Source of the DNA: Escherichia phage VTCCBPA_211
Reading direction: 5' to 3' (one strand)
DNA length: 64,000 nt
Sequence record: PP989838.1
The notes under the pieces were generated by a model. It saw nothing but the letters and a program-made list of their open reading frames with translations. It did not search any database and was not told the origin of the DNA. The position numbers and the translations under genes are program-made. Of the stretch, positions 6,135 through 8,244 are shown piece by piece. Within the stretch, counting starts at the first letter, position 1; each line of letters opens with the position of its first letter.

Positions 6135-6213
6135 TCAATGGGTGCCTCTGACAAAGGGGCACAATTTAAAGGTTAATTAGATGAAAGGGTTTACCCTTCA
6201 GGTGGATTAGAAA

Positions 6214-8244
6214 ATTTGTGGCATCGTATTAGCTGGCGGTAATCTGTCAAGCACCGATTTAGACGTATTCAACCAACTCTTTTATGCTGGAGTATTCCGA
6301 GGACAACACTCCTCTGGTATCTTTGGTCAGCGTAAAAGTACTAAGGAAGTCTTCACTTATAAAGAAGCTCTTCCTTCTTTCGCATTCATCCTACAAGATG
6401 AGTACAAGAAGCACACCACCGGTGAAACAGCTTACACTGTAGCACCTTCATGGATTGTTGGTCACAGCCGTCATGCAACGAAAGGTGCAGTTAACGCCAA
6501 GAACGCCCATCCTTTCCAACATGGTAACATCACTCTGGTTCATAATGGAACCTTGATGGACCAAGATCTGTTACCTGACAGCAAAAACTTCGAGGTAGAC
6601 AGTGAGAACATCTGCCACTCTATTAACACTATTGGTGCAGCAGAGACTATTCAAAAGCTGGATGGTGCTTTCACCTTAATCTGGCATGATGCTTCTGATA
6701 ACCGTCTTCATATCATCCGTAACGAAGAGCGTCCTTTCCATCTCGCACGTTGTAACAGAGATTGGTTTGGTGCTTCTGAAGAAGATATGTTGATGTGGAT
6801 TCTGAAGCGTTCTAAGTCCCATAAGAACCGTATTGACGAGCATTTTGAATGTAAAATTGGTACAGAATACATCTTTGATATGTCAAACAACAGTATGACT
6901 CTGGTTGAAGAGGTCGCCCACGAGCTTCCGGTTTTTACGGTAGCCAATCGTTGGGGCAATTATTACTCGAACAACTACAGCCAAAGCAACTATCAAAGTT
7001 CCTCAAAAAGCAGTACAAGCAATCCTTACGACACGAAGCCGGGCGTGACAGCGGCAGACGTTCGTCGAAGAAACGCAGTGGTAAGTCAAAACAAAATCGC
7101 AAGCGATCGAAACATTGATATTCGCCGCGATATGACTGTGGAAATCACTCCGCATGAGTTTGTTCCTTATGCAACTGCCGGTGCTGTTCCTTCTCGTGGT
7201 AAGATGATTGGTTATATCTACGATGAGAAATCTCAAGAGTACATCGAAGGTGATGTTCATAACGTAGATATTAAGGCTTATCAGGATGCCCTGAAAGACC
7301 CTAAAATTGTTTACCGTGGGACAGTATCCTGCATCTCCGAAGTCAATGCTATGGTCCGTTTAGTGATCACAGCAGGTCGTTTTGTTGACCCATCTCTGGA
7401 GAAAAAGGAGCCTGAGTCTACTACTGCTGACTTTGATGATGATATCCCTTTTGACATGAATGATAGTTTCGTCAACAAGAATGGCGTTACTATCACTCGT
7501 AAATTCTGGGAAGCACACTCTCATGGTGATTGTGGTGGTTGTGACAAGCACATTGATTGGAAGGATGCACCTAAAGCAGTCTTCGCATATCAGTGCTATT
7601 GGCATACTGAATGTCTGGAAGGTTTGACTAAACCTAAAGATGAAGAAGAGGAGGAAACTCCTATTGGTGTTTGTGAAATCTGCGGTGAAGTTAAAACGGA
7701 GAATGAGTTCGATGAAGAACTTAGTCGTCTTCGTGGTGAAGATATCTGTAAAGTCTGCGCTGTAGATGTAAAGAAGAAGGTATCTAATGCTACGATCAAA
7801 GATGGTTATGTCTGGATTAAAGCAACAGATACAACAAACGCCCGTCGTCCTGAGTTTGCTTTACGTGTAACTGAAGATATGATTGGTCGTATGACTGTAT
7901 TACCTTCCTCAGCGAAACAGACAGGCATCACTCTGGAGGATGTTGTTGATGCTTATGTTGAGAAACGTAGCAACAGTATTTTTGCAATCTCAACTAAGCC
8001 AAAAAAGGAGGAACCTGCTGAGAAAGCAGGTGTGTTTCCTGAATCACGAACAGCTCTCCGCAAAACTGTTGTCAGCTTCGACGGAAACCGAAGCACTGAC
8101 TTCACCAAAGCCATGTGGTCAACCCTCGGATACTGCTCAGAGTGTTTTAAGCAGATTCCGTGGCGCGATGCTGAAAGTTGTACGCTTGGTTCTATGAATC
8201 AAGTTTATTGTAATTCTCCTAAATGTTCATTGAATAGAGGTTAA
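6214..8244 (+). CDS. class-II (Ntn) glutamine amidotransferase domain protein with long Cys-rich C-terminal extension
   Basis: In-frame translation upstream of the track ORF gives CGIVLAGGN ... RGQHSSGI ... HSRHATKGAVNAKNAHPFQHGNITLVHNGT, the GATase-II signature; the catalytic Cys codon at 6217 is preceded by ATT with an AGGTGG SD 8 nt upstream; C-terminal CxxC pairs. Confidence 0.6.
   Translation: MCGIVLAGGNLSSTDLDVFNQLFYAGVFRGQHSSGIFGQRKSTKEVFTYKEALPSFAFILQDEYKKHTTGETAYTVAPSWIVGHSRHATKGAVNAKNAHPFQHGNITLVHNGTLMDQDLLPDSKNFEVDSENICHSINTIGAAETIQKLDGAFTLIWHDASDNRLHIIRNEERPFHLARCNRDWFGASEEDMLMWILKRSKSHKNRIDEHFECKIGTEYIFDMSNNSMTLVEEVAHELPVFTVANRWGNYYSNNYSQSNYQSSSKSSTSNPYDTKPGVTAADVRRRNAVVSQNKIASDRNIDIRRDMTVEITPHEFVPYATAGAVPSRGKMIGYIYDEKSQEYIEGDVHNVDIKAYQDALKDPKIVYRGTVSCISEVNAMVRLVITAGRFVDPSLEKKEPESTTADFDDDIPFDMNDSFVNKNGVTITRKFWEAHSHGDCGGCDKHIDWKDAPKAVFAYQCYWHTECLEGLTKPKDEEEEETPIGVCEICGEVKTENEFDEELSRLRGEDICKVCAVDVKKKVSNATIKDGYVWIKATDTTNARRPEFALRVTEDMIGRMTVLPSSAKQTGITLEDVVDAYVEKRSNSIFAISTKPKKEEPAEKAGVFPESRTALRKTVVSFDGNRSTDFTKAMWSTLGYCSECFKQIPWRDAESCTLGSMNQVYCNSPKCSLNRG

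Follow-up and report, generated by a model that had tools for sequence, protein, structure and literature searches.

The gene for a predicted class-II glutamine amidotransferase in Escherichia phage VTCCBPA_211 (PP989838.1, from which a 64,000-nucleotide (nt) stretch, hereafter called the window, was analyzed) most probably begins at a rare start codon. We assign a probability of roughly 85% to the reading that translation starts by ordinary initiation at an AUU codon (ATT at 6214–6216, + strand), directly followed by the codon of the putative catalytic Cys (Cys1; TGT at 6217–6219, + strand). The complete coding sequence (CDS) thus defined, 6214–8244 on the + strand, encodes a 676-amino-acid homolog of phiEco32 gp83 and equals in length the phiEco32 CDS (54493–56523). 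Initiation at AUU by way of the Shine–Dalgarno sequence AGGTGG was one of the possibilities raised in the original prediction on this DNA, and it is supported by the conserved ATT, by purifying selection upstream of the first canonical in-frame start, and by the recurrence of ATT or ATC before Cys1 in other phage lineages.

Anatomy and conservation of the start site

Reading and translation of the sequence reproduced every position given in the original prediction. A mini-open reading frame (mini-ORF; 6181–6210, + strand) begins at ATG 6181–6183, comprises nine codons (MKGFTLQVD) and ends at TAG 6208–6210 (+ strand), 3 nt 5' of the ATT; it is in frame with the amidotransferase, the frame continuing through AAA (6211–6213), the ATT and the TGT into CGIVLAGG.... 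Neither ATG nor GTG nor TTG occurs between the TAG and the TGT, and because the stop lies two codons upstream, only the ATT can serve as a start in the window. That the codon before the Cys is the start codon across the family follows from the homologs reading ATG-TGT, among them Proteus phage J3S, Cronobacter phage GAP52, Salmonella phage SE131, Aeromonas phage 4_4572, Pseudoalteromonas phage HP1 and several uncultured phages, the annotated homolog CDSs beginning at the ATG before the Cys. The Shine–Dalgarno sequence AGGUGGA (6200–6206, + strand), for which the duplex with the anti-Shine–Dalgarno sequence was computed, leaves a 7-nt spacer to the AUU (8 nt when counted from AGGTGG, 6200–6205), and a hairpin, AAGGG-UUUA-CCCUU (6185–6198, + strand), with a folding energy of −4.6 kcal/mol, has its 3' end 1 nt before it. 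The first canonical in-frame start in the ORF list, TTG 6553–6555 (+ strand), at which many GenBank records begin, is preceded by no Shine–Dalgarno sequence.

In the proposed mechanism, the 30S subunit would bind AGGUGGA (6200–6206), the 7-nt spacer placing the AUU in the P site, where the initiator formylmethionyl-tRNA would read AUU despite the third-position mismatch and presumably insert formylmethionine; the hairpin may assist 30S binding at this weak codon. Deformylase and methionine aminopeptidase would then remove the Met, exposing Cys1 as the free N-terminal nucleophile (Ntn) required by the Ntn fold. Because initiation factor IF3 discriminates against AUU, a low, IF3-dependent output would be expected, as at E. 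coli infC. Under this mechanism, the mature protein should carry a free N-terminal Cys and give the tryptic peptide CGIVLAGGNLSSTDLDVFNQLFYAGVFR.

The assignment of Cys1 is derived from profile alignment and from its invariance in homologs. Position 1 of an N-terminal-domain profile built from 12 sequences aligns with Cys1 of human GFAT (7ndl, 6r4e) and of E. coli PurF (1ecb), the profile matches GlmS, PurF and AsnB structures at E = 1e-9 to 1e-6, and the Pfam scores are 55.1 bits for GATase_6 (cut-off 27) and 27.4 bits for GATase_7 (cut-off 25). Cys1 is invariant across 12 diverse homologs, and every catalytic-domain invariant is kept in the window protein, which, as judged by these alignments, belongs to the class-II (Ntn) glutamine amidotransferases and has a predicted glutaminase activity. 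The domain is homologous to those of GlmS/GFAT, PurF and AsnB, in which the mature enzyme requires its catalytic Cys at position 1, and E. coli GlmS and PurF start with ATG-TGT, the Met being subsequently removed. Instead of the synthase domain of those enzymes, the phage protein has a C-terminal region of ~450 amino acids (6890–8241), for which a Pfam search gave no match and no recognizable synthase or acceptor domain; several CxxC...CxxC pairs in this region resemble zinc ribbons.

Over the 60 nt at 6166–6225, 68 phage records show 100% identity and 28 more depart by one base, each variant read among the 28 being the synonymous change GGC>GGT at 6222, and the ATT was present in 14 of 14 members of the window's own cluster that were read. 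Because the same sequence occurs in ~96 independently sequenced genomes, the sequencing or assembly error that the original prediction had considered is excluded. It had also regarded homologs with ATG-Cys, differing by a simple substitution, as an argument against AUU initiation; distant homologs indeed show ATG-Cys, yet the ATT, being fixed in the ~96 genomes, cannot be regarded as a sporadic substitution. The 51-nt leader of the gene (6166–6216, + strand) is identical at 51/51 positions to the leaders of KBNP1711 and ECBP2, phages of the genus Nieuwekanaalvirus, to which the window is 59–60% identical at the amidoligase 3' end, 71–82% in the amidotransferase coding region and 52–56% at third codon positions. 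Among all exact matches in the 64-kb window, the leader is the longest one to KBNP1711 that has both flanks below 80% identity. The ATT and the 51-nt leader are therefore fixed across two phage genera, Kuravirus and Nieuwekanaalvirus, with synonymous sites near saturation. For codons 1–112, comparison with the same two phages gave 0.13–0.16 nonsynonymous (pN) and 0.67–0.72 synonymous (pS) differences per site and dN/dS of 0.07–0.09, because of which the catalytic domain must be regarded as translated. The earlier remark that the ORF track beginning at TTG 6553 drops the catalytic domain is borne out, and this TTG is, on the evidence of the constraint, not the true start of the amidotransferase.

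Two further islands of exact match to KBNP1711, at 37900–37980 and 54793–54843 (− strand), contain TAATGTATA, the published consensus of the promoters recognized by phiEco32 gp36 (the phage sigma factor), and correspond to late promoters listed for SU10. Because these other islands hold the gp36 promoter consensus, exact-match islands of this kind do mark regulatory elements in these phages. The leader is also recognizable in Aeromonas phage BUCT695, which belongs to a different family and whose enzyme is 54% identical to that of the window: identity is 84% over 6166–6216 and 92% over the 60 nt of 6166–6225, and in the BUCT695 leader ATT-TGT is accompanied by the hairpin AAGGGUUAACCCUU, by AGGCGG and by a mini-ORF of equal length (MKGLTLQAD). 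An alternative hairpin that would sequester the Shine–Dalgarno sequence, GGUUUACC / GGUGGAUU, given by the minimum-free-energy fold, was dropped, because both BUCT695 substitutions disrupt its pairing.

As an annotation, the ATT start is correct but already known. The GenBank CDS begins at ATT in phiEco32 (gp83, ABY52884.1), SU10, LAMP and Bas93, and it reaches the ATT in 8 of the 55 annotated Kuravirus/Nieuwekanaalvirus records listed; the others lack the catalytic domain and begin at an internal TTG or ATG (phage Paul, at the equivalent of TTG 6553) or elsewhere (EP335). No discussion of the ATT start was found in the literature on phiEco32 start codons, a search that covered sources other than the texts of the phiEco32 genome paper and of Iyer et al. 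2009. Gene callers do not consider ATT and ATC as starts, and the annotations lose the catalytic domain as a result. In Klebsiella phage vB_KpnP_Klyazma (lineage L198, OP125547.1, 86–123), Cys1 is preceded by ATC, with a hairpin AAAGC/GCUUU and GGAGGA-N7, and the GenBank CDS starts 17 codons after Cys1, hence without the catalytic Cys. Most of the ~96 Kuravirus and Nieuwekanaalvirus records, as well as Klyazma, thus annotate the gene without its catalytic domain and should have it start at the ATT or ATC. The amidotransferase protein is made in SU10-infected cells, as indicated by nine peptides (PMC4281155).

Rare start codons and the adjoining hairpin in related phages

For a family-wide survey, Cys1 was located in homologs from IMG/VR, JGI metagenomes, GTDB genomes and GenBank phages, and the homologs were clustered at 80% amino-acid identity into 90 lineages. 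The codon before Cys1 is ATT or ATC in 13 of the 90 lineages (~14%), ATG in 71, and GTG or TTG in 7; ATA was found in none of the surveyed lineages. The ATT/ATC lineages checked have an in-frame stop 3–19 codons upstream and, with the exception of L055, no canonical start between this stop and the rare codon. ATG predominates among their nearest relatives, and therefore the switch of codon, or an exchange of leaders, happened many times; thus the proteins of L186 (ATT) and L108 (ATG) are 83% identical, their leaders being unrelated, and the close relatives L045 (ATC) and L159 (ATT) interchange the two rare codons. The median energy of the Shine–Dalgarno duplex is −9.75 kcal/mol for ATT/ATC leaders versus −6.2 kcal/mol for ATG leaders (one-sided Mann–Whitney p = 0.003), and most ATT/ATC leaders take the form GGAGGA-N7-AUU. 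When IMG/VR hits to GGAGGA-N7-NNN-TGTGG were sorted by the codon at NNN, amidotransferase genes accounted for 12/120 with ATT, 4/120 with ATG, 0/120 with ATC and 0/120 with ATA, from which it follows that ATT is specifically favored together with a strong Shine–Dalgarno sequence.

A hairpin abutting the Shine–Dalgarno sequence, with a stem of 5–6 bp, a loop of 3–5 nt and its 3' end 13–15 nt before the start codon, is present in 10–11 of the 13 ATT/ATC lineages versus ~4 of the 71 ATG lineages (p = 7e-7). The lineages differ completely in stem sequence (AAGGG/CCCUU, AGGGAU/AUCCCU, CCUGA/UCAGG, GAACCU/AGGUUC, UAAGCC/GGCUUA, CCGGC/GCCGG, GACUC/GAGUC, AAUGC/GCAUU and GUAGCC/GGCUAC), and the structure and position of the hairpin are kept despite these changes, which argue for a maintained structure. 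The evidence consists of per-sequence folding, two controls and a hold-out sample: a random-anchor control within each locus gave a combined p of 4e-6 for the placement of the hairpin, and, since the pattern had been noticed before it was tested, a fresh IMG/VR sample was drawn with patterns fixed on the Shine–Dalgarno sequence, the spacing and Cys-Gly, in which the hairpin was found in four of five new ATT lineages and in none of four ATG lineages having the same Shine–Dalgarno sequence. The lineages are not fully independent, as leaders may have a common ancestry or be moved by recombination, so that the p-values overstate the number of independent events. A covariance model of the whole arrangement, constructed from two near-identical sequences, was abandoned as too sequence-specific; of the 16 loci searched, which comprise 14 distinct ATT/ATC leaders, it retrieved only nine, and five of these hits had E > 1.

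Our best guess is that the hairpin helps to hold or position the 30S subunit beside the Shine–Dalgarno helix, or insulates the Shine–Dalgarno sequence, and thereby enables the use of a weak codon; alternatively, it could serve as an operator bound by a protein, or protect the 5' end left after RNA processing. Phage operators of the T4 gene 43 type place a short hairpin directly upstream of the Shine–Dalgarno sequence of the regulated gene. The amidotransferase hairpin is likewise short and directly 5' of the Shine–Dalgarno sequence, but its stems and loops vary completely between lineages, and its link with a non-AUG start is no feature of the T4-type operators. Such variation fits a structural role better than that of a sequence-specific operator.

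Taken as a unit, these elements may constitute a recurrent initiation cassette, in which a hairpin lies 0–2 nt before a strong Shine–Dalgarno sequence (usually GGAGGA), followed by a fixed 7-nt spacer, AUU (rarely AUC) and the Cys1 codon, and which, if functional, would act as an IF3-sensing or otherwise gated translational switch that phages have repeatedly acquired or exchanged for this single enzyme. We put this forward tentatively, its chances lying somewhat short of even. In approximately one in seven lineages of the phage Ntn-amidotransferase genes, this arrangement stands in place of a moderate Shine–Dalgarno sequence and an AUG start. We found no earlier description of the use of ATT or ATC in ~14% of the lineages of this phage gene family, of their stronger Shine–Dalgarno sequences, or of the hairpin that most of them have.

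Searches for other signals around the leader were negative. No sigma-70-like promoter was found on the + strand at 6135–6216, and the leader has no match to the phiEco32 gp36 promoter consensus tAATGTAtA (PMC8948821). In a scan of 6050–6350 with the covariance models of Rfam 15, the best scores were 9.6–16.7 bits as compared with gathering scores of 38–70, indicating no known RNA family. The leader, considered as a possible repeated regulatory motif, occurs only once in the 64-kb window, and a scan of the window for other ATT, ATC, ATA or CTG starts with a Shine–Dalgarno sequence and a long ORF gave nothing comparable. Separately, a motif TTTAAATGTAA, represented in the window by TTTAAAGGTTAA at 6165–6176, is conserved ~25–30 nt 5' of the amidotransferase start in L004, L005, L014, L015 and L019 (the last being that of BUCT695); it resembles the gp36 promoter core AATGTA, and the phages of these five lineages have different sigma factors.

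Weighing of the alternative explanations

Several points weigh against simple initiation at the AUU. The entire 51-nt leader is fixed, its invariance extending to the hairpin loop and to the AU-rich stretch 5' of the hairpin, which means that selection acts on more than simple initiation. An out-of-frame TTG (6216) and GTG (6218) overlap the ATT-TGT and would open ORFs of eight and four codons (6216–6242), and they could compete with the AUU for ribosomes at the same Shine–Dalgarno sequence. The AGGUGG duplex of the window, at −5.9 kcal/mol, is no stronger than those of ATG leaders, and most other ATT lineages have stronger ones. The assignment of the N-terminus to the AUU derives from sequence comparison; the mass of 63.8 kDa in the SU10 proteomics table is that of the truncated ORF, so that it is uninformative on the position of the start (PMC4281155), and the SU10 supplements contain no peptide list.

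The explanation that survives best besides de novo initiation is coupled reinitiation, in which ribosomes would translate the mini-ORF (6181–6207), melt the hairpin, stop at UAG 6208–6210 and, retained by the Shine–Dalgarno sequence, restart 3 nt further on at the AUU, so that reinitiation and not new 30S binding would supply most of the enzyme. It is a variant of AUU initiation rather than an alternative to it, and we consider it unlikely as the principal route, with a possible minor contribution. The spacing of stop, 3 nt and AUU is identical to that at thrS-infC, a weak AAGG lies 8 nt 5' of ATG 6181, and BUCT695, despite an enzyme identity of 54%, retains a mini-ORF that matches in length and frame; in L186, an upstream helix-turn-helix (HTH) ORF of at least 73 codons ends in TAG TAA directly before the ATT. 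On the other hand, the mini-ORF ATG is missing in the related leaders of L186 (where it is CTG) and L138, the BUCT695 mini-ORF has no Shine–Dalgarno sequence, and the two substitutions that distinguish it from the Kuravirus mini-ORF are each non-synonymous. An upstream ORF ending near the start is thus present in the window and in BUCT695, is replaced by a long ORF in L186 and is absent in L138. Neither coupling to an upstream ORF (3/14 ATT/ATC versus 32/77 ATG leaders) nor the occurrence of stop triplets in the spacer (11/14 versus 54/77) is enriched in the ATT/ATC leaders.

The original prediction had offered coupling of the mini-ORF to the enzyme either by reinitiation or by stop readthrough with later removal of a propeptide, and only the former part stands as a possibility, with the geometry of thrS-infC. 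In the latter, translation would start at ATG 6181, read through UAG 6208, and yield a 12-residue propeptide that is cut autocatalytically, as in B. subtilis PurF. Propeptides are indeed removed in some Ntn amidotransferases (11 residues in the case of B. subtilis PurF), and the mini-ORF is in frame with the enzyme. Unlike the B. subtilis PurF type, however, no open frame runs from an upstream canonical start to the Cys, since TAG 6208–6210 interrupts it; the 64-kb window contains no suppressor tRNA; the start of the mini-ORF is not conserved in L186, L138 and other ATT lineages; and in the other ATT/ATC lineages, with their stop 3–19 codons upstream, no in-frame canonical start lies upstream of the ATT except in L055. 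Moreover, ATT or ATC always stands directly before the Cys, which a propeptide would not need, and this recoding is accordingly highly improbable. The weakest explanation, a dead N-terminal domain (through decay of the 5' end into a pseudogene, or through an assembly error) with protein made only from TTG 6553 or ATG 6556, where gene callers and most GenBank records start, is already refuted, as judged from coding constraint and conservation, by the same sequence in ~96 independently sequenced genomes, the dN/dS of 0.07–0.09 over codons 1–112, the retention of all catalytic-domain invariants and the lack of a Shine–Dalgarno sequence before 6553.

Comparison with infC, the gene cluster and significance

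Initiation at AUU 6214–6216 is worth comparing with that of E. coli infC, whose start, read from an E. coli genome, is GGAGGA-A-UAA-GGU-AUU, with UAA being the thrS stop, whereas the window has GGUGGA-U-UAG-AAA-AUU. In both, 1 nt separates a 6-nt Shine–Dalgarno core from the in-frame stop of an upstream ORF, and 3 nt separate this stop from the AUU; other phage lineages carry the exact GGAGGA-N7-AUU; we found no earlier description of this likeness. The phage start site resembles infC in layout, and by analogy it may also respond to IF3. At infC, AUU and AUC can replace each other across bacteria as a target of IF3 autoregulation (PMC5499595), which is well established (PMC5499595, PMC3592434), and both codons likewise occur in the phage amidotransferase family. 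At the thrS-infC junction, the shares of reinitiation and de novo initiation are approximately equal, and the output from the infC AUU is about a quarter of that from AUG (PMC3592434). The differences are that the upstream ORF is a nine-codon mini-ORF in the phage and a full gene, thrS, at infC, that a hairpin abuts the Shine–Dalgarno sequence in the phage and none does so at infC, and that the phage product is not a translation factor and has no autoregulatory loop. To our knowledge, another E. coli example, pcnB, is a single-gene case with neither family-wide recurrence nor an associated hairpin. Its product, poly(A) polymerase, is also a non-regulatory enzyme, the output of which is limited by an inefficient AUU (cited in PMC3592434).

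Positions 5000–9900 share 95–96% identity with phiEco32, with NJ01 and with dozens of further Kuravirus coliphages, and by this identity the window is that of a Kuravirus (phiEco32-like) coliphage. The gene order on the + strand, which parallels phiEco32 genes 84 to 80, is amidoligase (5031–6134; a homolog of phiEco32 gp84, identified from the ORF, Pfam Amidoligase_2 and the phiEco32 annotation), amidotransferase, a 77-amino-acid DUF7195 protein (8249–8482), a small ORF (8463–8687), which shares 20 nt with the DUF7195 ORF, and an ATP-grasp ligase (8690–9883). Published functions of this cluster are predictions only (PMC10580990, citing Iyer et al. 2009). Just 3' of the amidoligase stop, RNA folding gave a GC-rich intergenic hairpin, GUGCCUC / GGGGCAC (6140–6162, + strand), without a U tract, which may function in RNA processing or stability, or terminate transcription by a non-standard polymerase; a compensatory change is present in ECBP2, and the distant relatives GAP52, J3S, SE131 and 4_4572 carry an equivalent at the same position. 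Between the ligase gene and the amidotransferase, a small XRE-like HTH ORF occurs in BUCT695 (~1350–1505, unannotated) and in L186 (1–225), in the latter running through the hairpin and the Shine–Dalgarno sequence to TAG TAA; the L186 contig is filed under Herbiconiux daphne and looks like phage DNA.

Very few AUU starts are well supported in bacteria and their phages, and in E. coli the textbook cases are infC and pcnB. The occurrence of AUU or AUC with a strong Shine–Dalgarno sequence and a hairpin, ATA being absent, argues for a selected mode of initiation rather than for decay of an ATG. If the cassette does function as a unit, non-canonical start codons would have a new accessory element in this hairpin. 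Cultured systems suitable for a test are phiEco32 or SU10 on E. coli, Klyazma on Klebsiella and BUCT695 on Aeromonas. Finally, a tightly controlled, low-output start of the amidotransferase would provide one clue to the function of the amidoligase/amidotransferase/ATP-grasp cluster in these phages.

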